Origin: Rhynchopus sp. YZ270_cl-10
Taxonomy: Eukaryota
Length of the DNA stretch: 43,000 nucleotides
Assembly: GCA_964035575.1 (NCBI GenBank)
Contig: OZ037836.1
Location: 2,108,001-2,151,000, forward strand
Direction: 5' to 3'
A program made the position numbers and the translations under genes. The notes beneath the pieces were generated by a model. It saw nothing but the letters and a program-made list of their open reading frames with translations, was not told the origin of the DNA and ran no database searches. Below, piece by piece: positions 2,215 through 34,183 of this stretch (positions within the stretch are counted from its first letter, which is position 1; each line of letters begins with the position of its first letter).

Positions 2215-3350
<1,136 letters not shown>

Positions 3351-5519: not shown

Positions 5520-5840
5520 TTGGGTATTGGGTATTGGGTATTGGGTATTGGGTATTGGGTATTGGGTATTGGGTATTGGGTATTGGGTATTGGGTATTGG
5601 GTATTGGGTATTGGGTATTGGGTATTGGGTATTGGGTATTGGGTATTGGGTATTGGGTATTGGGTATTGGGTATTGGGTATTGGGTATTGGGTATTGGGT
5701 ATTGGGTATTGGGTATTGGGTATTGGGTATTGGGTATTGGGTATTGGGTATTGGGTATTGGGTATTGGGTATTGGGTATTGGGTATTGGGTATTGGGTAT
5801 TGGGTATTGGGTATTGGGTATTGGGTATTGGGTATTGGGT
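5520..5840. repeat. (GGGTATT)n G-rich array, about 46 units
   Basis: Perfect 7-mer array starting a few bases after the USP stop codon. Confidence 0.98.
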
Positions 5841-5928
5841 TTGTGGGGAAAGTTTCAGCTAAAGTACCGGGGGGGGGGTTTTTTTTTGAACAAGATAAAC
5901 AATAAGCTCGCTTATTCTCCGCCCCGGG

Positions 5929-6742
5929 ACTGTGTACTGTGTACTGTGTACTGTGTACTGTGTACTGTGTACTGTGTACTGTGTACTGTGTACTGTGTAC
6001 TGTGTACTGTGTACTGTGTACTGTGTACTGTGTACTGTGTACTGTGTACTGTGTACTGTGTACTGTGTACTGTGTACTGTGTACTGTGTACTGTGTACTG
6101 TGTACTGTGTACTGTGTACTGTGTACTGTGTACTGTGTACTGTGTACTGTGTACTGTGTACTGTGTACTGTGTACTGTGTACTGTGTACTGTGTACTGTG
6201 TACTGTGTACTGTGTACTGTGTACTGTGTACTGTGTACTGTGTACTGTGTACTGTGTACTGTGTACTGTGTACTGTGTACTGTGTACTGTGTACTGTGTA
6301 CTGTGTACTGTGTACTGTGTACTGTGTACTGTGTACTGTGTACTGTGTACTGTGTACTGTGTACTGTGTACTGTGTACTGTGTACTGTGTACTGTGTACT
6401 GTGTACTGTGTACTGTGTACTGTGTACTGTGTACTGTGTACTGTGTACTGTGTACTGTGTACTGTGTACTGTGTACTGTGTACTGTGTACTGTGTACTGT
6501 GTACTGTGTACTGTGTACTGTGTACTGTGTACTGTGTACTGTGTACTGTGTACTGTGTCTGTGTACTGTGTACTGTGTACTGTGTACTGTGTACTGTGTA
6601 CTGTGTACTGTGTACTGTGTACTGTGTACTGTGTACTGTGTACTGTGTACTGTGTACTGTGTACTGTGTACTGTGTACTGTGTACTGTGTACTGTGTACT
6701 GTGTACTGTGTACTGTGTACTGTGTACTGGGTACTGTGTACT
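5929..6742. repeat. (TGTGTAC)n array, about 116 units
   Basis: Near-perfect 7-mer array with two variant units. Confidence 0.98.
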
Positions 6743-8525: not shown

Positions 8526-8807
8526 ATGTGCAAGACCTGTTGGGATGCCTGCCTGTCGCAGAGGGTCCCCGGGAGTCGTCATGTGTGCCCTATTGACAAC
8601 AGAACACATGTGAACAGATCCCACCTGGTCCCTAACAGAAGCCTGGCATCGCTCATTGAGTCGTACGTCAAGAAGCAGGGGAGGGGGGCAGAGCACTCCT
8701 CTGCTGATGCCACGCAGCAGGCAGCACCTGATCGCTCTGGACTCGGAGGCCGTGGTGGAGGCAAGGGCAGGGGCGGAAGACGTGGGAGCCGCTCCATTGC
8801 CGAATAG
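8526..8807 (+). pseudogene. C-terminal half of a RING-finger domain with an RG-rich tail
   Basis: CKTCW...VCPIDN...LVPNRSLASLIE matches the second half of a RING plus the common post-RING PNxxL helix; the N-terminal half is replaced by AT-rich repeat DNA. Confidence 0.6.
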
Positions 8808-8989: not shown

Positions 8990-10181
8990 TAGGGGGTACG
9001 ACTCCAGCCATTTTTTGCGCACGGAAAATTCATTTGGCATTATCTGGTCATCTCCAAGGCAACTGCGGGTGAAAAACACCCTCAGAGTGGGTCACAGGGG
9101 GCCTGTGGGTCGAAAAACGACCCAGAAGCCACCCCAGAATACAAAAAAATGGAAAAAAATAGTGAAAAAACGGCTTTTTTCACGTTTTGGCCACTTTGGG
9201 CAAAATAGCGATTTTTCGAGAAAAAAATCAAAAACCGGGATATTTTTTGACATCACAAAGCCTCCTTTGGCACAAATATACCCCAAAAGTGGCCTGTGAG
9301 TCCATTCCAACCTGTTTTGGACATATTTGACACTTTTGGAAGTGTTTTTTTGGTGTTTTTAGGTCAAAAAAATGCCCAAGACGTCCCCAAGACATCCCCA
9401 AGACACTTTGCACACCCCCTGTTACGGTCATATTTTTTTCGTTTTTTTGCCTGAAACCCCCAAAATACCCCTCCCGGACCCCACATAGTCCCGAATATCC
9501 ATCACACACCCACTCAGAGTGAGTAGAAGCACCCCAAAAAAAATATTTTTTAAAGCCCTAAAATTGTGCTTCAGTTTCGGCAGCATCCATGTTGAAGTTG
9601 AAGGGCTTTAAAAAATATTTTTTTTGGGGTGCTTCTACTCACTCTGAGTGGGTGTGTGATGGATATTCGGGACTATGTGGGGTCCGGGAGGGGTATTTTG
9701 GGGGTTTCAGGCAAAAAAACGAAAAAAATATGACCGTAACAGGGGGTGTGCAAAGTGTCTTGGGGATGTCTTGGGGACGTCTTGGGCATTTTTTTGACCT
9801 AAAAACACCAAAAAAACACTTCCAAAAGTGTCAAATATGTCCAAAACAGGTTGGAATGGACTCACAGGCCACTTTTGGGGTATATTTGTGCCAAAGGAGG
9901 CTTTGTGATGTCAAAAAATATCCCGGTTTTTGATTTTTTTCTCGAAAAATCGCTATTTTGCCCAAAGTGGCCAAAACGTGAAAAAAGCCGTTTTTTCACT
10001 ATTTTTTTCCATTTTTTTGTATTCTGGGGTGGCTTCTGGGTCGTTTTTCGACCCACAGGCCCCCTGTGACCCACTCTGAGGGTGTTTTTCACCCGCAGTT
10101 GCCTTGGAGATGGCCAGATAATGCCAAATGAATTTTCCGTGCGTTTGGTCCCAGCCAAAATGGCTGGAGTCGTATCCCCTA
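8990..10181. mobile_element. Foldback element: about 570-bp near-perfect inverted arms with a 42-bp spacer
   Basis: Arms 8990-9559 and 9602-10181; mirrored ORFs appear on opposite strands in the track; ends TAGGGGGTACGACTCCAGCC and GGCTGGAGTCGTATCCCCTA. Confidence 0.85.
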
Positions 10182-10603: not shown

Positions 10604-11668
10604 ATGGAAATATGTGTGACGAGCTTTGACGGAGAGAACACAGTCGAGGTGGGTGTGGATGATACAACTGCGGACATACGGCGGAAGGTGGCGACTGCAG
10701 CAGAGTTGTGCGAAGACGGCTTTGACATGAGCTTCGGAGAGAAGCTGCTGGCCGAAGGAGACGACACGACGCAGCTGAGTGCTGGGGACACAGTTGTGCT
10801 GACGAAGACGAAGTCGCAGAAGGACGACGCCATTGCAGCTCTTCGTGACTTGGGTGAGACAAGGCTGACGTCAGACAGGTTCAACGGTCTGGAAGATCCC
10901 AAGCTGGTTCATTTGTTTCTGCAGGCGGAGGTTGTTACTGAGATCCCCTATAGCTTCTTGAGAGATGAGACATTCGAAGAACTTGATCTCAGTGGTGTGC
11001 CAGGTGTGACTCAAATAGAAAGAGGTTTCCTCCAAAGCTGCACCTCATTGCACACTCTTGATTTATCTGGGTGGAGCAATGTGACGCGGGTTGATACTTT
11101 CTTTCTCTTCAACTGCACCTCATTGACCACACTGGATATGTCAGGGTGGAACAATGTAAGGCAAATAGGAGACGACTTTCTCTCCTACTGCAGCGCATTG
11201 CGAACCCTTGACTTGTCTGGGTGGAACAATGTGACGCGGGTTTATGAGCGCTTTCTCTTCAGCTGCACCTCATTGACCACACTGGATATTTCTGGGTGGA
11301 ACAATGTGACGCAGCTTGGGCGCTCTTTTCTCGCCGGCTGCAGCGCATTGCAAATCCTTGACTTGTCTGGGTGGAAGAATGTAACGCGGGTTGATGATTC
11401 CTTTCTCTTCCACTGCACCTCGTTGACCACACTGGATATTTCTGGGTGGCACAATGTAAGGCAAATAGGGAGGCACTTCCTCAAGAACTGCAGCGCATTG
11501 CAAACACTTGACCTATCTGGGTGGACGACTGTTCAGCACATTGAGGCAGACTTCCTAAAAGGATGCAAAATACCCACAAGCAGTATCAACGTCACCGGAT
11601 CGAGCAGTGTTGTGTCAGAATATGTGCATGGCTATAGCGGTAGCCTCCGCAAATGTGTGTGCATGTGA
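10604..11668 (+). CDS. Ubiquitin-like domain + 25-aa LRR protein with C-terminal CaaX motif (354 aa)
   Basis: MEICVTSFDGENTVEVGVDDTTADIRRKV...FGEKLL resembles the ubiquitin fold; two alternating LRR types (LxTLDxSGWxNVxx...FLxxC); ends RKCVCM*; ATG chosen by alignment to the paralogs. Confidence 0.85.
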   Translation: MEICVTSFDGENTVEVGVDDTTADIRRKVATAAELCEDGFDMSFGEKLLAEGDDTTQLSAGDTVVLTKTKSQKDDAIAALRDLGETRLTSDRFNGLEDPKLVHLFLQAEVVTEIPYSFLRDETFEELDLSGVPGVTQIERGFLQSCTSLHTLDLSGWSNVTRVDTFFLFNCTSLTTLDMSGWNNVRQIGDDFLSYCSALRTLDLSGWNNVTRVYERFLFSCTSLTTLDISGWNNVTQLGRSFLAGCSALQILDLSGWKNVTRVDDSFLFHCTSLTTLDISGWHNVRQIGRHFLKNCSALQTLDLSGWTTVQHIEADFLKGCKIPTSSINVTGSSSVVSEYVHGYSGSLRKCVCM

Positions 11669-12247
11669 GGCATGTGCATCTTTCGAGAGGCTAGGCGCTC
11701 ATTGCGATGTTCAGGGAACGAATTTTACATTGCACGTTGCACTTTGCCCAAATATGAAACTGGAGATATGTTTTTTTATGCACAGTTCTTTGCATCCTTG
11801 CGTGCGTACACTGATACAACCAAGCATGTTGTTTTATACTAAGTTAAGACAAATGCTTTGTCACAACACAGTTTTGTGGTGGGAAATGACTCTTTAATGA
11901 GCCAATTGTCTTTTTCTATGCAACATGTTAGACCGTTTGGTCTGGGAGGGTTTGGGGTTCTTATCTGTCTCAGTGACATGTTGAGCAATTACGAGAGGTG
12001 TTTGCTGTATTTTATGAGGACAAATACTTTGTGGTGGGAAATGATTAAAACATCTGAGACTTGTAGTTTATTCCTTTCCCCTATTATTGTGCACTCACCT
12101 CATTTCTGTTGAAGTTCAAGGGGACAACCTCGTGATTTTCCTCGCAACCGCGTGTGGTGACGTTTCTGCGTTCGTACGACCTCCACCAATGCTTTCCTAT
12201 TCCCACAACCCCACCACACAACAGAGCAACACAAAAAAGAAGGCAAA

Positions 12248-13285
12248 ATGGACGTAACCATCAAGAGGTACGACGACAACTTGTTCATGATCGAGGTGGG
12301 TGTGGATGACACAACGGAGACGATGCGGCAGAAGGTGGCGTCTGCAGTGGGGTTGGCTGAGGACAGCTTCCACATGGGCTTCGGAGGGAAGGACGAAGGA
12401 GAGGACATCACGCAGCTGAGTGCTGGAGACACAATCATCCTCACGAAAGTGAAGAAGTACGCAGCCCGAGCAGAGCTTCACGCGTTGGGTGAGACGGACA
12501 TCACTGCAGAGCGGTTGGGGGAGGTGGAGGATCCTGAGGTGGCGTGTTTGCTTCTGCAGGCGGAGGTTGCGACTGTCATTCCTGATGACTTCTTGTCCGG
12601 TTCATCATTAACGAGACTTGATCTGAGTGCTGTGTCGTGTGTGACGGAGGTTGGTGATAAGTTTCTGTCCAGTTGTACAACGTTGACAAGCATCGACCTG
12701 TCAGGGTTGAGCAATGTGACGCGCATCGGTGGCTACTTTCTCGACGGTTGCGAAGGCTTAACCACTCTGGATCTTTCGCCACTCAGCAACTTGACAGAAA
12801 TCGGTAGCTGCTTTCTCAGCGGCTGCGAAGGTTTAACCACTCTGGATCTTTTACCACTCAGCAACTTGACAGAACTCGGTGGCTGCTTTCTCAACCGCTG
12901 CAAAGGTTTTACCACTTTGGATCTTTTACCACTCAGCAACTTGACGCACATCAGTTACTCCTTTCTCCACAGCTGCTCAGGCTTATCCACTCTGGATCTT
13001 TCACCACTCCGTAACGTGGTAGAAATCGGTGGCTGCTTTCTCCACGGCTGCGAAGGCTTCACCACTCTGGATCTCTCGCAACTCAGCAGGGTTACGTTTG
13101 TTGATTACCTATTTCTTACGAACTGCACTTCGTTGAAGAGTATTCACCTTACCGGCTGCAGCAGTGCTGTGTCCGACGCAGTAGTGAAGTGCAAGCTGCA
13201 GGAGCTTGTGGTTGAAGCACGTCCGAAACGCAGCAGAGACGAATCCCCCCAGCAAGCACACAAACGGCAGAGACACGCACAATGA
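12248..13285 (+). CDS. Ubiquitin-like domain + LRR protein, copy A (345 aa)
   Basis: UBL-like N-terminus; seven 25-aa repeats LTTLDLSPLSNLTxIGxxFLxxCxG; tail RPKRSR...HKRQRHAQ. Confidence 0.9.
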   Translation: MDVTIKRYDDNLFMIEVGVDDTTETMRQKVASAVGLAEDSFHMGFGGKDEGEDITQLSAGDTIILTKVKKYAARAELHALGETDITAERLGEVEDPEVACLLLQAEVATVIPDDFLSGSSLTRLDLSAVSCVTEVGDKFLSSCTTLTSIDLSGLSNVTRIGGYFLDGCEGLTTLDLSPLSNLTEIGSCFLSGCEGLTTLDLLPLSNLTELGGCFLNRCKGFTTLDLLPLSNLTHISYSFLHSCSGLSTLDLSPLRNVVEIGGCFLHGCEGFTTLDLSQLSRVTFVDYLFLTNCTSLKSIHLTGCSSAVSDAVVKCKLQELVVEARPKRSRDESPQQAHKRQRHAQ

Positions 13286-13999
13286 CGATGAGGTGTGCTG
13301 CATAACGGGCTTCCTGAAGTCGCTCTTCCAGCGAAAGCAGACATGGTGGCAGTTTAGTGAGGACACATCAGTTGGCAAATGTTTGTTTAATGTTGATGAG
13401 GGTAGCATCGGTTTGTAATGTGGTCCACGTTTTTGTGGCAATTGTCAAGATCTTGATCACAAAGATGAAGATTTGGGCTGTGTGAAATGTTTGTCTTGTT
13501 TGCCTTGTCGGGTGTGTGCACTGTAAGTGAAACAACTGTGGATCTGCAGGCACGTGCTCTGATGTTTATTCAGTGTGGTGTGTTGTGGTTTTGTAATGTT
13601 TTTACGCTTTTTACGTTAGTAGAAGAAGGGACCTTGCGAACATTCTTTCGCAGGTGGGTACAAGCTGTCACCGTGGCACTCAGCTACGGTGCAGAAGAGG
13701 CAGTAGGGCAGACCAACTACCAAAGGTGGGGTCTGTGCTAGAGGGAAGGGGTTACGTTTTCAGGGTGTGTGCACTGTACGTGAGACAACTGACGTGCGCT
13801 GTTGTTTATCCAGGATCACGAACCTAGGTCATTTGAAAGCATATTCGGGGATGGTACATGGGGACAGGAAGGGTAACAAACAAGGTGGTCGCCCTTCTTT
13901 ATTAGCACGCCATATGTTCGGGTTTTGTGCATTGCTTCTTTCATTTGTTTTATGATTTCATGCAATGCTAAAAGGAAATTGAACACCGACCCCTCGAAA
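13286..13999. repeat. About 700-bp 3' flank duplicated with each UBL-LRR copy (also about 19156-19864, 21536-22202, 25939-26605)
   Basis: Near-identical sequence follows all four stop codons. Confidence 0.92.
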
Positions 14000-14261
14000 G
14001 CTCATTTGTAACTGTTCGAAGAGACACAATAGCTTCGTTCTTTCCCATCCCTCCACCTTTTCACGCCTACCGCTTCTGTTTGTGTACAAAACAATTTCAG
14101 GCACATTTCGCGCTTCAAGTGTCCGAACGTATTGGGGGATCAAGGTGGTGTTGGGTCTCTTCTGCGCTGTCTTGCGTGGCACCTTTTCTCAAATAAACTC
14201 CCTGCCCCTCTGCACAAAAAGCTCTACTAACACCACACATCAGAAAACCACAAACATCACG

Positions 14262-15130
14262 ATGCACACCAAAACGGCACTGCTGCTCTTCGCGTCCTTC
14301 TCTGCTGCCGCATCACAAGGGCTCTCTTTTGAAGGGTACGGGAACAACGTGTTTTGCTGGGGAGCCCACCTCACGCCGAACAGTATCCACGCTTGAGGGG
14401 GTTGACGTGGGGAGTGGGGTCTCCAGTTCGATTATGACTGGGTCCATGACTTTTCTTGGCTCTGGATGGCACGGGTGTTCAACTGCTCTTTTGCAGGCAC
14501 TTCCCTTGCTTTTGTATGGGTTGACGGCCACCTTGTGTGCACAGACTCGAAGTTCAGAAAGGACCCCACCCTCCCCAACATCACCTACAGCTATGTGGAC
14601 AGCCCCTTCCTCGTCTCCAACTCAAGACGCACCTTGCCTGTGAGGGCCCACTTCTACCGGAACGCATCCGTGTCTGGGGTGCAAAGCTCCTTCACAATGC
14701 GCTGGGGAGACAACAACACATTGTGCAGCCCCATCCCAAGCGATGTGCTCTCTGCCTCTATGGGCGAAGCGGAAGAGACGAGTGAAAAGATGCAGCGCTC
14801 CCTGGTGAAAGGGTGGGGGAATTGGAACAACTTTAACCTGCTTGATGTGGTCCGTATGCCAGACTCCGCCGTTATTACCACGATCCTGTGCAAAGACACG
14901 CAATGTATCAACGGAACATGCATCGAACCCTTCCGCGCAGGTGGGGTCGAGGTTCGTGTGGGTGCACGCGCAGCAGACCTGTCCTACTCTCAGCTCTTCG
15001 TTGGAAATCACAGCGGCGCCTTGAACGTGAACGTCTCGATTGAGTTCGCAACATCACCAGACGGAAGGACATGACACTACTGGTCACTCCAGGTTGCGTG
15101 TCAGGATCGACCTGCCCACTGCCAACAACA
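14262..15130 (+). pseudogene. Frameshifted N-terminal part of a secreted glycoside hydrolase (PA14-like region plus GH63/MGH1-like N-terminal region)
   Basis: Signal peptide MHTKTALLLFASFSAAASQ; FVWVDGHLV; LVKGWGNW...VRMP; VRVGARAADLSYSQL; frameshifts near 14355, 14460 and 15070; family recognised from memory. Confidence 0.55.
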
Positions 15131-15321
15131 CAGCGTAGTCGTACACGTGACGCACTACACCCCACTTTGGCCTTTATCGGGGGTCACAACTGCGACAAAG
15201 GAAGGAGTGTAAAGCACAAAGGCACACAACCAACCTGTCTCGCGTCTGTTCAAAACGCGTAGTATTTCTCTGCTCACCTCCCCCATCATGTCTTGTTGTC
15301 TCAACTCCCCAGTAGCTTCAC

Positions 15322-15582
15322 TCACAACCCCGCCTCCACAAGGTTAATATATCCGGTGAGTGCACCCCAGTGGTAGAACTGGTCCCCTGTGCAATCTGAC
15401 GTGTTCTGGAGAGTCATGGTGCTGGTGGAAGACGTCTTCACCGTCCCTTCTCTGTACCACGCAAATCGTCCCTTCAGGATGAGAGTGTGTCCAGGGCCGG
15501 TTGTGGCCTTCTGGATGGTGGCATACTTGAGCTGTATGTCAAGCGGTTCTTGTTTCTTCTTCTCTTTGTTGCATGGGTCTGT
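15322..15582 (-). pseudogene. Inverted, internally deleted remainder of the glycoside hydrolase
   Basis: Open frame absent from the ORF track: ...HTLILKGRFAWYREGTV...NTSDCTGDQFYHWGALTGYINLVEAGL*; FYHWGAL resembles the C-terminus of MGH1/trehalase-like hydrolases. Confidence 0.55.
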
Positions 15583-15604
15583 TTAGTCCACTAAACATTT
15601 TTAA

Positions 15605-17203
15605 CCCTATACGCCCCAAGAGCCACTTTAATGGCTTTCGAAATGACGCCATGCTGTTAGACAGGTTCAACTCATTTTTGTAAAAACATTTTTTTTATGT
15701 GAAAAGAATTTGCACCGATCTTTCAAAAGAAGCAAGAGTCGAAAACTTTTATGCATCTGGTATTACTTTCGGTGCTGGGGGCTGGGGTGCTACTTTCACC
15801 AAAAGTGACGTTTTTTCACCCACACCCCTAATATGTACCTTTCGCGATACCCAATGCCGCCAAGCCCTTAGTCGGGTTCTACCCATTTTCGTGAACACAA
15901 TTTTTTATATATTTCGAAAGATTTTTCGCCGATCGTTCAAAAGAAGCAATAATCGAAAACTTTTGTGCATCGGATATTACTTTCGATGCTGGGGGGAGGC
16001 GGGGTGGGGGTGTGAGCACCCTGTGACCCCCCCATATTCTAAAATCTGTAAGACAACGTGCACTGACATAGGTTCTACTCATTTTCGTAAAAACACTTTT
16101 TTTATGTTGAAAGAATTTGCACCGATCTTTCAAAAGAAGCAAAAATCGAAAACTTTTATGCATCTGATATTACTTTCGATGCTGGGGGGAGTAGTACCAC
16201 TTTTCACGGCCCTTTGGACGGGCACCCCCTATTCTGGTTCCTCCATGACATCCCATACTCTGTATGAGGTTCTACTCGTTTTCGTTAAAATATTTTTATA
16301 TATTTCAAAGATTTTGACACGAATCTTTCAAAAGAAACAAAAATCGAAAACTTTTACGCATCTGATTGCACTTTGGATCTGTGGACTGCTACCCACCCAA
16401 GAGGCACCCTTTCGACCCGAAGGACGTGGTTATGACTAGGGGTCATCATGATCTGATAATGGTTCTGCTTGTTTTCGTAAAAATCCTTTGGTTTATAGGG
16501 AAACTATTTGACTCAAATCTTTTAAAATAAGCAAAAATCGAAAACCTTTGTGCATCTGTTTGCCATTTGGATGCTGGGGCGAGTTGCCACCAAAACCACA
16601 AAAACACCCCACACACACGACCTATGCAGAGCACACAGTAAGCCGAATTTTCACTGTTTTTTCGTATTTCGGGGTGCTTTTTTCATGGATTTTCGGGTCA
16701 CAGGGTTGTTCCGACCCATTCTGGGGGCTTTCGACCTCAGGAGATGCCCAAATTGTGAAAAATCGCCCATTTTTTACGTTTTTAGACATGTTTCAGTGTA
16801 AATCGTTAAGGAAATCAGTTTTAGACATGGCTGCTAACAGAGCTGCACTCATATAAGTTGGGTTCTACTTGGACTTTTTGCTCGATTTTTTTTTCTTTGA
16901 AAAGATTTTGTGATCAATCTTTCAAATAACGCCATTTTCGGACGAAAATAATTTACGGGGTTTTCCTCGGCCGGCCGAATTAGTCAAAAACCAAAAAGTG
17001 GATTTTATGCTTCCCTCATTTTGGGGATAACATTTTTTTTCGAAAAAAAACTTAAAAAAATGGAATTGAAAGCCGTGTTCAAAATCTTTCAATTGCGGCC
17101 AGGTACGATCACAAATTTGCATCTGGGGTCCCCTTACCGGTTGGAGAGCCCCAAAAACCAAAACTCAAAAGTGGCTTGAAAAAACGGCTTGGGAGGTATA
17201 GGG
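15605..17203. mobile_element. piggyBac-like non-autonomous transposon, 1.6 kb
   Basis: TTAA|CCCTATACGCCCCAAG ... CTTGGGAGGTATAGGG|TTAA, i.e. TTAA duplication with CCC/GGG termini; five internal repeats of about 200 bp; no transposase. Confidence 0.8.
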
Positions 17204-18120
17204 TTAAAGAGATTTTCAAAAAGGTGCAACGGGAGCAGTGCGGCTCGGGTCGACTCATATCATCCAATGTTTACCTATGTAACCCCTGTGTGTTTTTTTA
17301 ACTCGCGTGATATGTTTTCATAAAAATGTTTCATCGGGGCAGTGCGACTTCAGGTCGACTGCGAGAGGTTTGCTGATAGTGCGCAGGTACAACCCGACAC
17401 GCAACCTCTGTTAGGACCGGTGTGCATGGTTTTTCTTATGGTTGTAGTGGGAGCAAAGGTTTGCAGCTTGTTGGTAGTGTGCAGACACGCAACATGTTAT
17501 GTTGTTTTCAACCATGCAGATGATACCTTCTAGTTCCTTTTTTCCGTGGGGATGTTTCGCTACCCCGGATAATGTTGAACTATTATTGACTTAGCGTTAT
17601 TTGTCTTTATTGTTGTTTTAAAGAAGGTCCCAAATCCTGGTCGCGATAGCTCGCGAACTTTCCCGCAGTCAACGCAGGGAAAGAAATAATCAACGAAATT
17701 ATTGGTCATGAAGCTTCTTTTGACCTTTTCGTTGATTCAGTCATCTGCCTGCATCCGGAATAATAATCCCTCCCGATTTCAGACTCCGTCTCCCACCTTT
17801 GTTTCAGCCCCTTGCTCACGACTCCCACAAGAGAATGATCCATTGTCCCCTGCGCTGCTGTCTCGCGTCTCCCCTAGCCTGGTAGTGCGAGGTCAGCTTT
17901 GCCATGTCCCTCAGCACTTCCCCTGCTTGCCTGAAAGCAGAGCATTGCAGGTTCGTGTACGTCCCCCAACATGTCACACATCATGTCAGCACCTCCGGCT
18001 TCAGGTCTCCACGCACTCCGTGCCTTCTTCCCACCATGATTGCCTCCTTCAGTGTTCTGATGTCCTCTCCTACTCCCACAACCCCACCACACAACAGAGC
18101 AACACAAATAAGAAGACAAA

Positions 18121-19155
18121 ATGGACGTAACCATCAAGGGGTACGACGACAACTTGTTCATGATCGAGGTGGGTGTGGATGACACAACGGAGACGATGCG
18201 GCAGAAGGTGGCGTCTGCAGTGGGGTTGGCTGAGGACAGCTTCCACATGGGCTTCGGAGGGAACGACGAAGGAGACGACATCACGCAGCTGAGTGCTGGA
18301 GACACAATCATCCTCACGAAAGCTAAGAAGTACGCATCCCGAGCAGAGCTTCATGTGTTGGGTGAGACGGACATCACTGCAGAGCGGTTGGAGGAGGTGG
18401 AGGATCCTGAGGTGGCGTGTTTGCTTCTGCAGGCGGAGGTTGCGACGGTCATTCCGGATGACTTCTTGTCGGGTTCATCGTTAACGAGACTTGATCTGAG
18501 TGCTGTGTCGTGTGTGACGGAGGTTGGTGATAGGTTTCTGTACGATTGCACAACGTTGACAAGCATCGACCTGTCAGGGTTGAGCAATGTGATGCGCATC
18601 GGTGGCTACTTTCTCTCCGACTGCGAAGGCTTAACCACTCTGGATCTTTCGCCACTCAGCAACTTGACAGAAATCGGCGATAGCTTTCTCGACGGCTGCG
18701 ACTGTTTAGCCACTCTGGATCTTTCGCCACTCAGCAACGTGACAGAAGTCGGTGACCACTTTCTCCACGGCTGCGAAGGTTTAACCACTCTGGATCTTTC
18801 ACCACTCAGCAACTTGACGCGCATCGGTATCTACTTTCTCTCCGACTGCGACGGCTTAACCACTCTGGATCTTTCGCCACTCAGCAACTTGACGCGCATC
18901 GGTAGCGACTTTCTCAGGAACTGCGAATGTTTAACCACTCTGGATCTTACACCACTCAGCAGGGTTAAGGTTGTTGGTTCGTACTTTCTTAGGAACTGCA
19001 CTTCGTTGAAGAGTATTCACCTTACCAAGAGTGCTGTGTCCAAAGCAGTGAGGAATAACAAGAAGCTGAGCAAATTTGTCGTTGAAGCACGTCCGAAACG
19101 CAGCAGAGACGAATCCCCCCAGCAAGCACACAAACGGCAGAGACACGCACAATGA
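18121..19155 (+). CDS. Ubiquitin-like domain + LRR protein, copy B (344 aa)
   Basis: Near-identical N-terminus and tail to copy A; different residues at the LRR variable positions. Confidence 0.9.
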   Translation: MDVTIKGYDDNLFMIEVGVDDTTETMRQKVASAVGLAEDSFHMGFGGNDEGDDITQLSAGDTIILTKAKKYASRAELHVLGETDITAERLEEVEDPEVACLLLQAEVATVIPDDFLSGSSLTRLDLSAVSCVTEVGDRFLYDCTTLTSIDLSGLSNVMRIGGYFLSDCEGLTTLDLSPLSNLTEIGDSFLDGCDCLATLDLSPLSNVTEVGDHFLHGCEGLTTLDLSPLSNLTRIGIYFLSDCDGLTTLDLSPLSNLTRIGSDFLRNCECLTTLDLTPLSRVKVVGSYFLRNCTSLKSIHLTKSAVSKAVRNNKKLSKFVVEARPKRSRDESPQQAHKRQRHAQ

Positions 19156-20497
19156 CGATGAGGTGTGCTGCTTAGAACGGGCTCCTCAAGTCTCTCTTCT
19201 TGCGAAAGCAGACATGGTGGCAGTTTAGTGAGGACACATCAGTTGGCAAATGTTTGTTTAATGTTGATGAGGGTAGCATCGGTTTGTAATGTGGTCCACG
19301 TTTTTGTGGGAATTGTCAAGATCTTGATCACAAAGATGAAGATTTGGGCTGTGTGAAATGTTTGTCTTTTTTGCCTTGTCGGGTGTGTGCACTGTATGTG
19401 AAACAACTGTGGATCTGCAGGTACGTGCTCTGATGTTTATTCATTTGTTGTGGTTTTGTTATGTTTTTACGCTTTTTACGTTTGTAGAAGAAGGGACCTT
19501 GCGAACATTCTTTCGCAGGTGGGTACAAGCTGTCACCGTGGCACTCAGCTACGGTGCAGAAGAGGCAGTAGGGCAGACCAACTACCAAAGGTGGGGTCTG
19601 TGCTAGAGGGAAGGGGTTACGTTTTCAGGGTGTGTGCACTGTACGTGAGACAACTGACGTGCGCTGTTGTTTATCCAGTATCACGAACCTATGTCATTTG
19701 AAAGCATATTCGGGGATGGTACATGGGGACAGGAAGGGTAACAAACAAGGTGGTCGCCCTTCTTTATTAGCACGCCATATGTTCGGGTTTTGTGCATTGC
19801 TTCTTTCATTTGTTTTATGATTTCATGCAATGCTAAAAGGAAATTGAACACCGACCCCTCGAAAACAGAGGATAGAGAAACTGAAAAGTCATGAAAATAC
19901 AGAACTGACGTTTAAAACAGCAAAATACAACTGAAGCTTTTCTGCAGTGCATTTGCCACACTTACTACTGCTGCTTCCGGCATGCTTCGGGATACCTACG
20001 CCTGCACTTCTTCCTTCGGAACCCCTGCTTCAGCAGATCTTGGTGGTCTCCAGCTGGTCGAGTTTGACAGCACCGCGTGTCCGAGCGGTCCCACATCGAG
20101 ACCACACGTCTTCACTTCGTTGTCGATCGCTTAACCCGAACGTCGAACCTCTTCAGTGCTTCGGCGGGGGATTGCTCCTTCACAGAAGAATCCTCATCCT
20201 CCTTGACGCCTTTCAAGAGTTGATTAGTCCGTGAACCTCACACCTCAGCAGACAGTTCAGAACACTACCTTCACACATCTCCCCTTTCTCATCACCTGTA
20301 AAGGACGTGGTGGCGGCTTTCCACTGATTTTCTTCTCAATGCGTGTGGTCACGTTGTTGCGTTCGTACGACCTCCACCAATGCTTTCCACGCACTCCGTG
20401 CCTTCTTCCCACCATGATTGCCTCCTTCAGTGTTCTGATGTCCTCTCCTACTCCCACAACCCCACCACACAACAGAGCAACACAAAAGGACGACAAA

Positions 20498-21535
20498 ATG
20501 GACGTAACCATCAAGGGGTACGACGACAACTTGTTCATGATCGAGGTGGGTGTGGATGACACAACGGAGACGATGCGGCAGAAGGTGGCGTCTGCAGTGG
20601 GGTTGGCTGAGGACAGCTTCCACATGGGCTTCGGAGGGAAGGATGAAGGAGAGGACATCACGCAGCTGAGTGCTGGAGACACAATCATCCTCACGAAAAA
20701 TAAGAAGTACGCAGCCCGAGCAGAGCTTCATGCGTTGGGTGAGACGGACATCACTGCAGAGCGGTTGGAGGAGGTGGAGGATCCTGAGGTGGCGTGTTTG
20801 CTTCTGCAGGCGGAGGTTGTGACTGTCATTCCTGATGACTTCTTGTCGGGTTCATCATTAACGAGACTTGATCTGAGTGCTGTGTCGTGTGTGACGGAGG
20901 TTGGTGATAGCTTTCTGTACGATTGCACAACGTTGACAAGCATCAACCTGTCTGGGTTGAGCAATGTGACGCGCATCGGTAGCTGCTTTCTCTCCGACTG
21001 CGAAGGTTTAGCCACTCTGGATCTTTCGCCACTCAGCAACGTGACAGAAGTCGGTAACCACTTTCTCAGCAGCTGCAAAGGTTTAACCACTCTGGATCTT
21101 TCGCCACTCAGCAACTTGACGTGCATCGGTACTTACTTTCTCTACTACTGCGAAGGCTTAACCACTCTGGATCTTTCGCCACTCAGCAACTTGACGCGCA
21201 TCGGTAGCTGCTTTCTCTGCGGCTGCGAAGGTTTAGCCACTCTGGATCTTTCGCCACTCAGCAACTTGACAGAAGTCGGTGACCACTTTCTCAACAGCTG
21301 CAAAGGTTTAACCACTCTGGATCTTTCACCGCTTAGCAGGGTTAAGGTTATTGGTGCGCGCTTTCTTAGGAACTGCACTTCGTTTAAGAGTATTCACCTT
21401 ACCGGCTGCAGCAGTGCTGTGTCCAAAGCAGTAGTGAAGTGCGAGCTGAGCAAGCTTGTGGTTGAAGCACGTCCGAAACGCAGCAGAGACGAATCCCCCC
21501 AGCAAGCACACAAACGGCAGAGACACGCACAATAA
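20498..21535 (+). CDS. Ubiquitin-like domain + LRR protein, copy C (345 aa)
   Basis: Same architecture; ATG placed at MDVTIKGYDD by alignment with the paralogs. Confidence 0.9.
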   Translation: MDVTIKGYDDNLFMIEVGVDDTTETMRQKVASAVGLAEDSFHMGFGGKDEGEDITQLSAGDTIILTKNKKYAARAELHALGETDITAERLEEVEDPEVACLLLQAEVVTVIPDDFLSGSSLTRLDLSAVSCVTEVGDSFLYDCTTLTSINLSGLSNVTRIGSCFLSDCEGLATLDLSPLSNVTEVGNHFLSSCKGLTTLDLSPLSNLTCIGTYFLYYCEGLTTLDLSPLSNLTRIGSCFLCGCEGLATLDLSPLSNLTEVGDHFLNSCKGLTTLDLSPLSRVKVIGARFLRNCTSFKSIHLTGCSSAVSKAVVKCELSKLVVEARPKRSRDESPQQAHKRQRHAQ

Positions 21536-22331
21536 CGATGAGGTGTGCTGCATAACGGGCTTCCTCAAGTCTCTCTTCCAGCGAATGCAGACATGGTGGC
21601 AGTTTAGTGAGGACACATCAGTTGGCAAATGTTTGTTTAATGTTGATGAGGGTAGCATCGGTTTGTAATGTGGTCCACGTTTTTGTGGGAATTGTCAAGA
21701 TCTTGATCACAAAGATGAAGATTTGGGCTGTGTGAAATGTTTGTCTTGTTTGCCTTGTCGGGTGTGTGCACTGTATGTGAAACAACTGTGGATCTGCAGG
21801 TACGTGCTCTGATGTTTATTCAGTGTGGTGTGTTGTGGTTTTGTTATGTTTTTACGCTTTTTTACGTTAGTAGAAGAAGGGACCTTGCGAACATTCTTTC
21901 GCATGTGGGTACAAGCTGTCACCGTGGCACTCAGCTACGGTGCAGAAGAGGCAGTAGGGCAGACCAACTACCAAAGGTGGGGCCTGTGCTAGAGGGAAGG
22001 GGTTACGTTTTCAGGGTGTGTGCACTGTACATGAGACAACTGACGTGCGCTGTTGTTTATCCAGGATCACGAACCTAGGTCATTTGAAAGCATATTCGGG
22101 GATGGTACATGGGGACAGGAAGGGTAACAAACAAGGTGGTCGCCCTTCTTTATTAGCACGCCATATGTTAGGGTTTTGTGCATTGCTTCTTTCATTTGTT
22201 TTGCAGTCAGAGGAAGAGAAGGGTGCCGTGCCTCCGTCTCTTCCTCTCACATGAAATACAAATGTAGTGTTTCTTTTGTTTCTGTTTTCACTTCTAAATA
22301 CTGTTTTCGCAGGTATTCGGGCAAATGTAAC

Positions 22332-22936
22332 ATATGGGTCGATTTCAAAAACCCCCCCCCCCCAAAAGTTCTTTTTTGTCTTTTTCATGATATAGGCAGT
22401 TTTTTTGCAGTCTGAGGTCCGGAACCGCCCCAAAAACGATTTTCTGGGAGGTTTTGGGAGGTTTTGGGGCGAAATGGACCTTTTTTGACCATTTTTATGG
22501 TATTTTTAGGCTGTTTTTGGCCCTTCTTCTTACACAGCCTATTGGGGGTCAAAATAGCTATTTTTGACCAAAAAACACAATTTATTTGACGCCAGGAGGC
22601 CTCCGTTGGCCCAAATATATCCCAAAAATGGGCTGTGAGCCCAATCCGACCTGTTTTGGGCACATTTGGCACTTTTCTTGGTGCTTATTTGATGTTTTTT
22701 GGTCAAAAATAGCTATTTTGACCCCCAATAGGCTGTGTAAGAAGAAGGGCCAAAAACAGCCTAAAAATACCATAAAAATGGTCAAAAAAGGTCCATTTCG
22801 CCCCAAAACCTCCCAAAACCTCCCAGAAAATCGTTTTTGGGGCGGTTCCGGACCTCAGACTGCAAAAAAACTGCCTATATCATGAAAAAGACAAAAAAGA
22901 ACTTTTGGGGGGGGGGGTTTTGAAATCGACCCATAT
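22332..22936. mobile_element. Foldback/MITE-like element with arms of about 245 bp
   Basis: Arms 22332-22577 and 22693-22936 are inverted (ATATGGGTCGATTTCA ... TGAAATCGACCCATAT); the spacer resembles 9245-9350 of the first foldback. Confidence 0.85.
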
Positions 22937-23554
22937 CAAAAGACCTCTCCCCTTGTAACTGTTTGTTGTCTCTTGCGTACTCTCACCCCCAATTGAAAAC
23001 ACCTGCACAAAACAAACTATTATTGACTTAGCATTATTTGTCTTTATTGTTGTCAAATAAGTACCAAATTTCTGGTCGCGATAGCTCGCGAACTTTCCTT
23101 GCAGTCAACGCAGGGAAAGAAATAATCAACGATGTGATTGGTCATGAAGCTTCTTTTGACCTTTTCGTTGATTCAGTCATCTGCTGGCATCCGGAATAAT
23201 AATCCTCCCGATTTCAGACTCCGTCTCCCACCTTTGTTTCAGCCCCTTGCTCACGACTCCCACAAGAGAATGATCCATTGTCCCCTGCGCTGCTGTCTCG
23301 CGTCTCCCCTAGCCGATAGTGCGAGGTCAGCTTTGCCATGTCCCTCAGCACTTCCCCTTCTTTCCTGAAAGCGGAGCATTGCAGGTTCGGGTACTTCCCC
23401 CAACACGTCACACATCATGTCAGCACCTCCGGCTTCAGGTCTCCACGCACTCCGTGCCTTCTTCCCACCATGATTGCCTCCTTCAGTGTTCTGATATCCT
23501 CTCCTACTCCCACAACCCCACCACACAACAGAGCAACACAAAAAGGAAGACAAA

Positions 23555-25906
23555 ATGGACGTAACCATCAAGGGGTACGACGACAACTTGTTCATGATCG
23601 AGGTGGGTGTGGATGACACAACGGAGACGATGCGGCAGAAGGTGGCGTCTGCAGTGGGGTTGGCTGAGGACAGCTTCCACATGGGCTTCGGAGGGAAGGA
23701 CGAAGGAGAGGACATCACGCAGCTGAGTGCTGGAGACACAATCATCCTCACGAAAGTGAAGAAGTACGAGGCGAGAGCAGAGCTTCACGCGTTGGGTGAG
23801 ACGGACATCACTGCAGAGCGGTTGGGGGAGGTGGAGGATCCTGAGGAGGCGTGTTTGCTTCTGCAGGCGGAGGTTGCGACTGTCATTCCGGACTACTTCT
23901 TGTCCGGTTCATCGTTAACGAGACTTGATCTGAGTGCTGTGTCGTGTGTGACGGAGGTTGGTGATAGGTTTCTGTACAGTTGTACAACGTTGACAAGCAT
24001 CGACCTGTCAGGGTTGAGCAATGTGACGCGCATCGGTGGCTACTTTCTCTTCAACTGCAAAGGCTTAACCACTGTGGATCTTTCGCCACTCAGCAACTTG
24101 ACAGAATTCGGTAACCACTTTCTCAGCAGCTGCAAAGGCTTAACCACTCTGGATCTTTCGCCACTCAGCAACGTGACAGAAGTCGGTGGCTTCTTTCTCA
24201 GCGGCTGCAAAGGCTTAACCACTCTGGATCTTTCGCCACTCAGCAACTTGACGCGCATCGGTACTTACTTTCTCAAGAACTGCGAAGGCTTAACCACTCT
24301 GGATCTTTCGCCACTTAGCAACGTGACAGAAGTCGGTGACTACTTTCTCAAGAACTGCAAAGGTTTAACCATTCTGGATCTTTCGCCACTCAGCAACTTG
24401 ACGCGCATCGGTACTTACTTTCTCAAGAACTGCAAAGGTTTAACCACTCTGGATCTTTCGCCACTCAGCAACTTGACGCGCATCGGTACTTACTTTCTCA
24501 AGAACTGCGAAGGCGTAACCACTCTGGATCTTTCGCCACTTAGCAACTTGACAGAATTCGGTAACCACTTTCTCAGCGGCTGCACAGGATTAACCACTCT
24601 GGATCTTTCGCCACTCAGCAACTTGACGCGCATCGGTACTTACTTTCTCAAGAACTGCGAAGGCTTAACCACTCTGGATCTTTCGCCACTTAGCAACGTG
24701 ACAGAAGTCGGTGACTACTTTCTCATTAACTGCAAAGGCTTAACCACTCTGGATCTTTCGCCACTTAGCAACGTGACAGAAGTCGGTGACTACTTTCTCA
24801 TTAACTGCAAAGGTTTAACCACTCTGGATCTTTCGCCACTCAGCAACTTGACAGAATTCGGTAACCACTTTCTCAGCGGCTGCAAAGGCTTAACCCCTCT
24901 GGATCTTTCGCCACTCAGCAACTTGACGCGCATCGGTAGCGACTTTCTCATTAACTGCAAAGGCTTAACCACTCTGGATCTTTCGCCACTCAGCAACTTG
25001 ACAGAATTCGGTAACCACTTTCTCAGCGGCTGCAAAGGCTTAACCACTCTGGATCTTTCGCCACTCAGCAACTTGACGCGCATCGGTAGCGACTTTCTCA
25101 TTAACTGCAAAGGTTTAACCACTCTGGATCTTTCGCCACTCAGCAACTTGACAGAATTCGGTAACCACTTTCTCAGCGGCTGCGAAGGTTTAACCACTGT
25201 GGATCTTTCGCCACTCAGCAACTTGACGCGCATCGGTAGCGACTTTCTCATTAACTGCAAAGGCTTAACCACTCTGGATCTTTCGCCACTCAGCAACTTG
25301 ACAGAATTCGGTAACCACTTTCTCAGCGGCTGCAAAGGCTTAACCCTGGATCTTTCGCCACTCAGCAACTTGACGCGCATCGGTAGCGACTTTCTCATTA
25401 ACTGCAAAGGCTTAACCACTCTGGATCTTTCGCCACTCAGCAACTTGACAGAATTCGGTAACCACTTTCTCAGCGGCTGCAAAGGCTTAACCCCTCTGGA
25501 TCTTTCGCCACTCAGCAACTTGACGCGCATCGGTAGCGACTTTCTCATTAACTGCAAAGGTTTAACCACTCTGGATCTTTCGCCACTCAGCAACTTGACA
25601 GAATTCGGTAACCACTTTCTCAGCGGCTGCGAAGGTTTAACCACTGTGGATCTTTCGCCACTCAGCAACGTGACAGAATTCGGTAACCACTTTCTCAGCA
25701 GCTGCAAAGGCTTAACCACTCTGGATCTTTCGCCACTCAGAAGAGTTAAGGTTGTTGATTCGGACTTTCTTACGAACTGCACTTCGTTGAAGAGTATTCA
25801 CCTTACCGGCTGCAGCAGTGCTGTGTCCGACGCAGTAGTGAAGTGCGAGCTGAGCAAGCTTGTGGTTGAAGCACGTCCGAAACGCAGCAGAGACGAATCC
25901 CCTTAG
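23555..25906 (+). CDS. Ubiquitin-like domain + LRR protein, copy D, expanded to about 25 repeats (783 aa)
   Basis: 18 more 75-bp repeats than copies A-C, one with a 3-bp deletion; CAG>TAG stop removes the last 11 aa. Confidence 0.88.
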   Translation: MDVTIKGYDDNLFMIEVGVDDTTETMRQKVASAVGLAEDSFHMGFGGKDEGEDITQLSAGDTIILTKVKKYEARAELHALGETDITAERLGEVEDPEEACLLLQAEVATVIPDYFLSGSSLTRLDLSAVSCVTEVGDRFLYSCTTLTSIDLSGLSNVTRIGGYFLFNCKGLTTVDLSPLSNLTEFGNHFLSSCKGLTTLDLSPLSNVTEVGGFFLSGCKGLTTLDLSPLSNLTRIGTYFLKNCEGLTTLDLSPLSNVTEVGDYFLKNCKGLTILDLSPLSNLTRIGTYFLKNCKGLTTLDLSPLSNLTRIGTYFLKNCEGVTTLDLSPLSNLTEFGNHFLSGCTGLTTLDLSPLSNLTRIGTYFLKNCEGLTTLDLSPLSNVTEVGDYFLINCKGLTTLDLSPLSNVTEVGDYFLINCKGLTTLDLSPLSNLTEFGNHFLSGCKGLTPLDLSPLSNLTRIGSDFLINCKGLTTLDLSPLSNLTEFGNHFLSGCKGLTTLDLSPLSNLTRIGSDFLINCKGLTTLDLSPLSNLTEFGNHFLSGCEGLTTVDLSPLSNLTRIGSDFLINCKGLTTLDLSPLSNLTEFGNHFLSGCKGLTLDLSPLSNLTRIGSDFLINCKGLTTLDLSPLSNLTEFGNHFLSGCKGLTPLDLSPLSNLTRIGSDFLINCKGLTTLDLSPLSNLTEFGNHFLSGCEGLTTVDLSPLSNVTEFGNHFLSSCKGLTTLDLSPLRRVKVVDSDFLTNCTSLKSIHLTGCSSAVSDAVVKCELSKLVVEARPKRSRDESP

Positions 25907-27258
25907 CAAGCACACAAACGGCAGAGACACGCACAATGACGATGAGGTGTGCTGCATAACGGGCTTCCTCAAGTCGCTCTTCCAGCGAAAGCAGACATGG
26001 TGGCAGTTTAGTGAGGACACATCAGTTGGAAAATGTTTGTTTAATGTTGATGAGGGTAGCATCGGTTTGTAATGTGGTCCACGTTTTTGTGGGAATTGTC
26101 AAGATCTTGATCACAAAGATGAAGATTTGGGCTGTGTGAAATGTTTGTCTTCTTTGCCTTGTCGGGTGTGCACTGTATGTGAAACAACTGTGGATCTGCA
26201 GGTACGTGCTCTGATGTTTATTCAGTGTGGTGTGTTGTGGTTTTGTTATGTTTTTACGCTTTTTTACGTTTGTAGAAGAAGGGACCTTGCAAACATTCTT
26301 TCGCAGGTGGGTACAAGCTGTCACCGTGGCACTCAGCTACGGTGCAGAAGAGGCAGTAGGGCAGACCAACTACCAAAGGTGGGGCCTGTGCTAGAGGGAA
26401 GGGGTTACGTTTTCAGGGTGTGTGCACTGTACGTGAGACAACTGACGTGCGCTGTTGTTTATCCAGTATCACGAACCTAGGGCATTTGAAAGCATATTCG
26501 GGGATGGTACATGGGGACAGGAAGGGTAACAAACAAGGTGGTCGCCCTTCTTTATTAGCACGCCATATGTTAGGGTTTTGTGCATTGCTTCTTTCATTTG
26601 TTTTAATATTAGAAACAATAACTGCGTTCCTTCCCACCACCCACCCCTCCACCTTTTCACGCATACCGCGCTCTGTTTGTGTACAAAACAATTTCAGGCA
26701 CATTTCGTGCTTCAAGTTTCCGTCCGTATTGGGGGTTTGCGGGTTTGCGGAAAAGAGACAATCATTGAATGAATATTAACAAGACACACAAAGAGAGAGA
26801 CAGTGGTATTTTATTCAATTACACACGACACCATCATTCATACCGCAAAGGCCGATCCTTTCGTGTATGTCTGCACATTCTTTCTGCAAAGAAGCCGTCC
26901 ACTGAATACCGTATCAACAACCCATCGCTATCACTCTGCACCTGCGGAATCTCCCAAAAGCAACAGACACAACAACACTGTTGATATTGACACAATTTTT
27001 GATGCAAATTCTTTCCGTTATTTACGTTGCTGCAACACAGCGTGTGAAAAAATGATAGTGCGGTGGGGAGGAGTGTTCAACTGTTCAATCTCCCTCCCCC
27101 ATTTTTCCGTTCGCGATTTTTTTACCCCTCCCGTTTGTAGACTCAACAGAGCGTGCATGTTAACAGTTCACAAACTGCAACAATACACACTCGATTGAAG
27201 GTCCCTTACATCCACTCTATTCCCACACCCCAACAGTTCTCACCCCGTTTCCCACACG

Positions 27259-33769: not shown

Positions 33770-33808
<39 letters not shown>
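33770..33808 (+). repeat. Poly(A) tract, 39 nt
   Basis: Ends a T-rich UTR-like segment and abuts a module of the downstream tandem repeat. Confidence 0.9.
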
Positions 33809-34180: not shown

Positions 34181-34183
34181 CAC

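Follow-up and report, generated by a model that had tools for sequence, protein, structure and literature searches.

The 43,000-nt window that we analysed (Rhynchopus sp. YZ270_cl-10, assembly GCA_964035575.1, contig OZ037836.1, positions 2,108,001-2,151,000 of the forward strand) carries on its plus strand the five open reading frames that an initial annotation had reported there. Each of these genes, A to E, is a single open reading frame with one plan: a ubiquitin-fold head (UBL), a helical linker, 25-aa LRR modules of the BspA/TpLRR type and a short tail. Self-BLAST placed A to D within duplicated units. In window coordinates the features are:

10604-11668, + strand: gene E, a divergent paralog; UBL, helical linker, 7 LRR modules (10982-11506) and a partial eighth
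12192-13999, + strand: duplicated unit around gene A, made up of the gene and ~0.7 kb of 3' flank
12248-13285, + strand: gene A; UBL (aa 1-68), helical linker (aa 69-104), 7 modules (12617-13141), cap and bipartite-NLS-like tail
17578-19864, + strand: duplicated unit around gene B
18121-19155, + strand: gene B; plan as gene A, 7 modules (18490-19014), NLS-like tail
20386-22202, + strand: duplicated unit around gene C
20498-21535, + strand: gene C; plan as gene A, 7 modules (20867-21391), NLS-like tail
23015-26605, + strand: duplicated unit around gene D
23555-25906, + strand: gene D; 25 modules (23924-25795), mainly 2- and 6-module block duplications, and a premature TAG

Gene E has a CaaX-like C-terminus (CVCM) and an upstream in-frame ATG at 10508. 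The ends of the genes had been described as constant; this holds for the near-identical 3' flanks of A to D, which differ by 1.7-2.4% over ~600 bp, but not for the tail of D, where the premature TAG removes the last 11 residues and with them the second basic cluster. An unrelated ORF fragment and a foldback element break up the array, and Rfam gave no match. The surroundings are rich in repeats and in elements. In short-contig runs X1-X4, which look genomic, intergenic DNA is covered in 30 of 30 bins; a 158-bp piece of A's repeats is present in X2 and X4 with 0-1 differences, and X2 also has 61 bp from the inner array of D without any change.

Repeat turnover and the residues that vary

All five genes match the Pfam LRR_5 profile (BspA/TpLRR class, PF13306) at 60.8-298 bits, against a gathering score of 27.7, and E and D also score above the cut-off of TIGR02167. 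The best matches of the LRR model were PcpA (Z 12.3, rmsd 1.7, 89 aa) and TpLRR 6mlx (Z 10.5). The modules depart from the BspA/TpLRR pattern in that LxL is followed by five residues rather than three and FL stands where that pattern has AF; by sequence comparison, the repeats are a divergent variant of this class.

TRF detected the 75-bp period, and module counts of 7, 7, 7 and 25 in A to D agree with the 7, 7, 7 and about 25 first proposed, the figure for D being that of the assembly, since no piece in the short-contig runs spans this gene. Because D grew mostly by block duplication, its 25 modules add length more than diversity; one of them, D19, is 24 aa long through an in-frame 3-bp loss.

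Shuffling or gene conversion among modules had also been proposed, and we see signs of both duplication and recombination. The four half-module motifs named as shared were all located: GNHFLSSC in modules C3, D3 and D24, RIGSDFL in B6 and in five modules of D, IGTYFL in C4 and in four modules of D, and GDHFL in B4 and C6. Modules of different genes, at different positions, that agree exactly in codons 11, 12, 14 and 15 number 4 pairs, where shuffling gives 1.6 on average; with 161 of 2000 shuffles reaching 4 pairs, this excess is not significant by itself. Of 325 column pairs, 184 show four-gamete conflicts, 19 of these being between third positions, and within D the left and right halves of modules have recombined. 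The repeats are thus duplicated and have likely also recombined; no sign of somatic assembly, no cassette pool and no diversifying enzyme was seen within the window.

Six codons per repeat vary, at positions 11, 14, 15, 18, 19 and 21. Among A, B and C these have pN 0.42 and pS 0.16 (dN 0.62, dS 0.18), against pN 0.064 and pS 0.114 at framework codons; the whole LRR region of the three genes, taken without any choice of sites, gives dN 0.173 and dS 0.135. In a tree-free minimum-step count on 28 unique modules, five variable codons took 30 non-synonymous steps, set against a small baseline of 12 synonymous steps in the whole module, a ratio of 3.7 (p 4e-5) that became 4.5 (p 2e-5) when D was left out; restricted to the variable codons, the count gives a ratio of 2.2 on 3 synonymous steps. 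By these counts, amino-acid change at the variable sites, for which a site-wise rate check had been suggested, runs at 3.7-4.5 times the silent rate.

The same five positions are highest in entropy across 748 unique modules of 158 other genes, in which the core residues are near-invariant. Across 492 close paralog pairs, mismatch is 72-83% at positions 14, 15, 18 and 19 and 0-24% at the core, and the detected module count differs in 396 of them. Tyrosine, tryptophan, phenylalanine and histidine make up 19% of residues at the variable sites against 1% at the exposed sites of the strand, exposure of the variable residues being assigned from the TpLRR pattern and DSSP.

The location of this variation separates the family from lamprey VLRs, to which it had been likened. 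Constant ends do flank a variable number of variable LRR modules in both. VLRs, however, are secreted or GPI-anchored, arise by somatic assembly of cassettes and have their variation on the concave LxxLxL sheet; the genes here are complete in the genome, encode no signal peptide and keep the LxxLxL strand as their conserved part, so that the comparison fails in detail. The variation lies in the xIGxxFLxxC segment, and the exposed strand positions 2, 4 and 24 mismatch in 12-16% of close paralog pairs (45% at position 25). The variable residues thus avoid the strand used by VLRs and NLRs.

Could such a pattern arise as a largely neutral or selfish expansion, through tandem-repeat turnover and local mutational bias, with no selected function? 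The repeat- and element-rich surroundings, the redundant expansion of D and the many truncated members (of 216 profile matches 46 are partial, and insertions appear to have broken several of them) would all fit. So would the N-termini of A to C, whose pN/pS of 0.026/0.032, on few changes, indicates weak constraint on recent copies. Turnover and bias alone, however, do not readily account for variation that falls on codon positions 1 and 2 with the third fixed (at codons 12, 15 and 19 it is C in every one of the 28 modules), for a near-invariant core in 748 modules, or for the retention of several distinct CaaX ends. Third-position fixity and the invariant core already weaken this reading, and we give it little credence.

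The variable codons are mostly NNC, codon 15 centring on TAC, which raised the question of mutagenesis like that of a diversity-generating retroelement (DGR), where variation would be limited to adenines and copied from a template repeat. This seems unlikely: CCA5 and AAC8 stay unchanged throughout the 28 modules, and non-NNC codons are needed for 10% of the family's residues at variable sites. No reverse transcriptase was found among the 10 window ORFs scanned.

The ubiquitin-like head, the tails and the wider family

The proposal that the N-terminus is a UBL was borne out at the level of fold. PF00240 (ubiquitin) was matched by 12 of 12 N-termini at E up to 1, with a best value of 1.2e-6 and just 0.038 for gene C, and the model of the head (pLDDT 74-89) superposes on ubiquitin with Z 9.0 and an rmsd of 1.9 A over 68 residues. 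Coupling to the ubiquitin-proteasome system, also proposed, is a candidate role suggested by the fold of the head. In proteasome shuttles of the Rad23/Dsk2 type the hydrophobic patch equivalent to Ile44 is important; among 170 members the Ile44-equivalent position is Gly in 54% and Ser in 34%, which argues against a classical proteasome shuttle. Gly-Gly is absent, the head ending in ILTK before the linker, and the five genes have no E3 domain.

A family search matched 422 clusters; the 120 of these that were listed apparently all come from one diplonemid assembly. On this sequence evidence the five genes belong to a large family, likely of hundreds of genes and likely from one diplonemid genome; together with the concordance of the variable sites in the 158 other genes, this agrees with the diversifying family first suggested. 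When 20 divergent representatives were looked up, 19 were ENA-only and one was a Rhynchopus euleeides UBL protein without LRR. No relatives were found in metagenome or viral contigs, nor, as weak evidence, with the distant homologue P0223 as a query among longer proteins. The family appears restricted to one lineage.

As had been predicted, no signal peptide was found in the five genes; they also have no membrane segment, and no hydrophobic segment rises above KD 1.53, features of an intracellular type. NLS-like tails occur in 53 of 170 members, including A to C, and CaaX ends in 30 of 170, where ~3 would be expected and a control family has 2 of 87. Several distinct CaaX ends are retained, and in a quick tree the tail subfamilies cluster by compartment type. 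Elsewhere in the family the same head is found on non-LRR C-termini (P-loop-like in P0194, a repeat protein in P0186), and a B-box/coiled-coil is fused in front of the UBL in P0182, P0193 and P0198.

Some diplonemids are predators or parasites, and a head that also sits on non-LRR C-termini could be a delivery header: the proteins would then be Crinkler/CR-like effectors sent into prey or host cells, with tails that act in the target cell and repeats that chase target proteins. Crinkler N-termini are indeed described as Ubl headers that lack a true signal peptide and precede modular, variable C-termini, and the Crinkler proteins target nuclei (PMC5289972). We nevertheless consider this unlikely, as none of the 12 N-termini matched a Pfam Crinkler-type profile at E up to 1, the same 12 that match PF00240; the five genes lack any toxin or nuclease domain, the C-terminus here being a predicted binding solenoid and not an enzyme; and a B-box/coiled-coil ahead of the UBL suits an internal role better than a leader.

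The repeat class itself invites comparison with the BspA-like families of Entamoeba and Trichomonas vaginalis, the latter with 911 genes, which share with ours the fold, a huge lineage-specific family, variable repeat number, diversifying selection and CaaX ends in some members (PMC2843621; PMC6414313). By this analogy the proteins would be adhesins, at the surface or anchored in a membrane, that recognise prey and substrate, and CaaX is no proof of an intracellular site, since a CaaX-bearing Entamoeba BspA protein is reported to be expressed at the cell surface (PMC2843621). This we regard as improbable: the five genes have neither signal peptide nor membrane segment, and a ubiquitin-like head with NLS-like tails points inside the cell. 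The present family also differs from the BspA families in its N-terminal UBL and helical linker, its NLS-like tails, its 25-aa repeat with FL for AF and two extra residues after LxL, and its likely diplonemid host; the main text of the T. vaginalis BspA paper does not use the word 'ubiquitin'.

UBL-plus-binder designs are common in proteostasis, and the clustering of compartment-type tails on the tree would suit adaptors for the cell's own proteins, such as substrate receptors for degradation, diversified for housekeeping and not for conflict. Such a role is quite improbable in our view, for it leaves unexplained the 72-83% mismatch at four sites in paralogs that average 93% N-terminal identity, and likewise the apparent restriction to one lineage.

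A candidate recognition repertoire

The reading that we prefer, at roughly even confidence, is a repertoire of genome-encoded, diversifying intracellular binders, probably for non-self recognition; it is from the evolutionary pattern that we infer an immune role. Whole genes would duplicate in tandem, unequal crossover or gene conversion would add, remove and swap repeats, and selection would retain new residues at positions 11, 14, 15, 18, 19 and 21. These positions are predicted to stack in register on one side of the solenoid, off the usual LxxLxL sheet, where they may form a binding surface. The tails would direct subfamilies, NLS-like ones to the nucleus and CaaX to membranes. The repeats would catch foreign proteins, which the constant head, acting as an adaptor that cannot be conjugated and bears a conserved acidic surface, would pass to a common partner, most likely degradation or extraction machinery reached otherwise than through the Ile44 patch. 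The selecting agents would probably be viruses, intracellular bacteria or mobile elements.

The fungal het-d/het-e receptors have a NACHT domain; neither this nor an NB-ARC or ROC-COR domain was found in the five genes or in 19 further proteins scanned, and the five genes hold no known immune-receptor signalling or catalytic domain. As in these NWD/HNWD receptors, near-identical repeats are exchanged within and between genes, vary in number and carry few diversifying codons each (PMC1805685), but theirs are WD40 repeats, here there are an LRR and a UBL with no NTPase, and non-self function is proven there and proposed here. Shuffled modules in large immune-candidate families outside animals and plants are likewise described for the LRR-ROCO and also the NB-ARC-TPR genes of Ectocarpus, proposed immune receptors (PMC3341825), and for the Tetrahymena LRR genes with 90-bp exons, which are associated with retrotransposons and mostly reported to be under purifying selection (PMC6564038). 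Those genes have one repeat per exon, in contrast to the single uninterrupted ORF here, and different partner domains. ESM Atlas clusters that join ubiquitin to DUF285/PARCEL repeats resemble the present plan in pairing a ubiquitin-like domain with a 25-26-aa BspA-related repeat, although at scores of 0.80-0.83 they are leads only; giant-virus DUF285 families were also compared (PMC10720644), the viral contigs searched here being those that held no relative. We found no description of a UBL joined to BspA-type LRRs in the open-access papers searched, diplonemid and Rhynchopus LRR topics included, and the genome paper on D. papillatum uses neither 'LRR' nor 'ubiquitin' in its main text.

A bolder version of the preferred reading, which we think fairly unlikely, is an intracellular immune repertoire that a diplonemid has evolved for itself: hundreds of LRR binders that vary on a face spared by VLRs, TLRs and NLRs, with swappable tails that sort them to nucleus or membranes and in some cases a TRIM-like B-box/coiled-coil, would deliver viral or bacterial proteins to degradation by a non-conjugated ubiquitin-like handle without an E3 domain of their own, and their repeats may still be reshuffled in clonal populations.

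The candidate is concrete and testable: the proteins are small, each is encoded by a single ORF, and a constant handle is paired with repeats that hold five or six variable sites apiece. If the reading is right, a euglenozoan case would join the shuffled-repeat repertoires of fungi, brown algae and ciliates, and the variable LRR surface, lying off the classical strand, would be of interest as a natural binder scaffold.

Layout of the UBL-LRR array and its surroundings

The initial annotation had described four near-identical genes and a divergent fifth, each joining a ubiquitin-like (UBL) head to 25-residue (75-bp) leucine-rich repeat (LRR) modules; all five open reading frames (ORFs) were found on the plus strand. 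When the proteins were cut at the LxL strand into 25-residue units, the 7, 7, 7 and about 25 modules claimed for A–D came to 7, 7, 7 and 25.

Gene E, 10604–11668, plus strand: ORF, 7 modules and a partial one
Gene A, 12248–13285, plus strand: ORF, 7 modules
Gene B, 18121–19155, plus strand: ORF, 7 modules
Gene C, 20498–21535, plus strand: ORF, 7 modules
Gene D, 23555–25906, plus strand: ORF, 25 modules

B and C are 82–83% identical to A, and E, the divergent copy, only 43%. The duplicated units extend beyond the gene, by about 0.05–0.5 kb on the 5′ side and 0.7 kb on the 3′ side, and the 3′ flanks of A–D diverge by just 1.7–2.4%. Sequence rich in pyrimidines and in C/A leads up to each ATG, with an AG some 15–25 nt before the start codon, a putative trans-splice acceptor. 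The window also holds the following:

1996–3138, 5520–6742, 32807–34181, 36989–41805: long microsatellites (6–9 bp units) and 290-bp and ~760-bp repeats
4420–5511, plus strand: UCH (ubiquitin-protease) domain ORF, upstream of the array
8526–8807, plus strand: RING/U-box-like finger, second half only, upstream of the array
9018–10143 and 22349–22921: two related foldback elements whose inverted arms (542 and 229 bp) are perfect
14263–15074, plus strand: unrelated gene fragment between A and B, signal-peptide-like start, interrupted frames
27259–29886, plus strand: receptor-type adenylate-cyclase-like gene of a large family, weak dCache and HAMP matches
34184–36022: 612-aa ORF matching no known family

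The UCH ORF and the half finger look partial or element-borne. The foldback elements, likely MITE-like, are 76% alike across about 170 bp, and their region has very deep coverage in sequencing runs; the 290-bp and ~760-bp repeats have poly-A/T arms at their boundaries. The cyclase-like gene has named relatives, one annotated as an adenylate cyclase, under the EukProt tags Rhum, Sspe, Hpha and PhF_6; we take these to denote Rhynchopus, Sulcionema and Hemistasia, plus another, related euglenozoan.

Heads, repeats and tails

A structure model of residues 1–195 of gene C, built with a 59-row alignment, had a mean pLDDT of 90. Its residues 1–70 match ubiquitin with a Z of 9.0 and an rmsd of 1.9 Å over 68 residues, and a profile built from 12 N-termini retrieved ubiquitin chains in the PDB, bearing out the proposed fold. 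By profile and predicted model, the UBL is genuine though atypical. Where ubiquitin has Ile44, 54% of the 170 full-length members have Gly and 34% have Ser; Gly-Gly is absent from the UBL, and E16, D21, R27, K29, E38, D39 and E50 are conserved in at least 90%. A family-specific three-helix linker follows at about residues 69–104 of the gene C model, whose predicted repeats resemble PcpA (Z 12.3) and T. pallidum TpLRR (Z 10.5). All five proteins passed Pfam LRR_5 (BspA type); among A, C, D and E, which were scanned with the PARCEL repeat model TIGR02167, E and D passed, with A and C narrowly below cut-off.

C-terminal tails of the 170 members, scored by our own regular expressions after consensus motifs, were NLS-like in 53, CaaX in 30 and neither in 87. 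About 3 CaaX ends were expected from internal 4-mers, a control family had 2/87, and distinct CaaX sequences fall in distinct clades of a quick tree. Genes A–C have an NLS-like tail and E ends in CVCM; in D a TAG removes the second half of the NLS-like motif, and the family protein P0002 stops at the same residue. A search for hydrophobic segments gave a maximum KD of 1.53 for any 19-residue window, in agreement with the claimed absence of a signal peptide. It is decidedly improbable that these proteins are surface adhesins like those of Entamoeba and Trichomonas. Crinkler-like effectors delivered into prey (PMC5289972, in excerpt) are an unlikely identity, and no Crinkler profile matched in 12 N-termini.

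Selection on and probable exchange among modules

In comparisons among A, B and C, the six variable codons per module (11, 14, 15, 18, 19 and 21) gave pN 0.42 and pS 0.16, against 0.064 and 0.114 in the module framework and 0.026 and 0.032 in the N-terminus; the entire LRR region, without site selection, gave dN 0.173 versus dS 0.135. To limit circularity, we tested positions 11, 14, 15, 18 and 19, the five of highest entropy in other paralogs; the 119 rows used included A and B (2 rows), and a second set without them returned the identical five. Among 28 unique internal modules, 30 non-synonymous steps at these codons stood against 12 synonymous steps module-wide, an excess of amino-acid change (ratio 3.7, p 4e-5), and the 12 modules of A–C alone gave 4.5, both by tree-free minimum-step counts. 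The five codons by themselves gave 2.2, resting on 3 silent steps only, and the framework 0.8, so that the synonymous baseline is thin. Among 492 close pairs family-wide, which are non-independent, mismatch was 72–83% at positions 14, 15, 18 and 19 versus 0–24% at core positions, and detected module counts, by a pattern that overlooks degenerate modules, were unequal in 396. We give neutral expansion very little credence.

Every variable position is an ‘x’ in the TpLRR pattern as published (PMC2843621, in excerpt). Spaced 25 residues apart, the variable positions would stack in register; DSSP on the model places module positions 11–12 within a second short strand ladder and 17–18 in bridges in some repeats. 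Y/W/F/H, in which binding surfaces are frequently rich, make up 19% of residues at variable positions versus 1% on the LxxLxL strand. It is this strand that carries the variation in VLRs and NLRs, whereas the UBL-LRR family keeps it comparatively conserved.

The module shuffling proposed earlier stands in part. Internal modules frequently resemble most closely a module of a different index in one of the other genes (C3–D24, 3 differences; B4–C6, 4; B6–D16, 4), and all four gametes occur in 184/325 column pairs, part of which recurrent mutation could account for. Within D, left halves RIGTY, EVGDY and RIGSD are joined to right halves KNC and INC, which differ in one codon by two bases, and modules D14–17 recur as D20–23 with 0–1 differences. 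The half-modules GNHFLSSC, RIGSDFL, IGTYFL and GDHFL were all recovered, each in two genes; exact cross-gene half-module sharing was not significant (4 versus 1.6 by shuffling, reached in 161/2000 shuffles), and there was no sign of programmed somatic assembly in the window. Unequal crossover and conversion suffice to explain the shuffling.

A diversity-generating retroelement, considered for the mostly NNC variable codons, is unlikely given the invariant framework adenines, the TAC-centred codon 15 and the 10% K/E/Q/M/W residues. The third base of variable codons in A–E modules, which are non-independent copies, is C in 160/208 and T in 26/208; comparable codons of the cyclase-like gene have C 143 and T 70.

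The wider family and its possible role

The family appears undescribed in the literature. An N-terminal search (clusters at 90% identity, proteins of 189–604 aa only) matched 422 clusters among 557 candidates; the best 120 of the 422 comprise 118 ENA records and 2 of the window's own genes, apparently from a single assembly, with PF00240 annotated on 16. An exhaustive profile search gave 387 matches, the weaker among the best 150 often being polyubiquitins. Among named UBL relatives the closest comes from Rhynchopus euleeides, and with the relatives of the cyclase-like gene this makes a diplonemid the likely host. Divergent representatives are known from ENA alone in 19/20 cases; one of these, P0223, whose contig measures 976 bp and whose branch in the quick tree is very long, may come from another species.

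A B-box match, weak at E 3e-5 to 0.01, lies N-terminal to the UBL-LRR in three scanned proteins (P0182, P0193 and P0198), together with a coiled coil judged likely by eye. In these three and in P0212 the UBL is preceded by a B-box and likely coiled coil, a TRIM-like plan without RING; P0212 is without BspA repeats.

The family is evolving by birth-and-death. Matches to its profile are partial in 46/216, and in two partial members the UBL continues into a reverse transcriptase ORF or an OTU-bearing ORF. Eleven truncated members (P0137, P0147, P0148, P0150, P0153 and P0157; P0175, P0176, P0180, P0184 and P0192) break recurrently at two sites, profile positions ~70–72 and 92, beyond which lies foreign sequence common to truncated members, reverse transcriptase in one case; mobile elements or introns with a preference for these sites may therefore be at work in the family.

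The evolutionary pattern is closely like that of fungal het-e repeats (PMC1805685) and reminiscent of Ectocarpus (PMC3341825) and Tetrahymena LRR (PMC6564038) families, as far as excerpts of these papers describe them. Atlas clusters uniting ubiquitin with DUF285 repeats (scores 0.80–0.83) suggest, as leads rather than support, that the pairing arose elsewhere too. Judged by its sequence pattern, the family has about an even chance of serving inside the cell as a repertoire that recognises non-self, with the constant UBL as its handle. Adaptors for the cell's self proteins seem as improbable as neutral expansion. The weakest link of the proposed mechanism is the step from UBL to proteasome. 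As a shuffled, positively selected repeat repertoire, the UBL-LRR family would represent a known principle in a new architecture and a new lineage.
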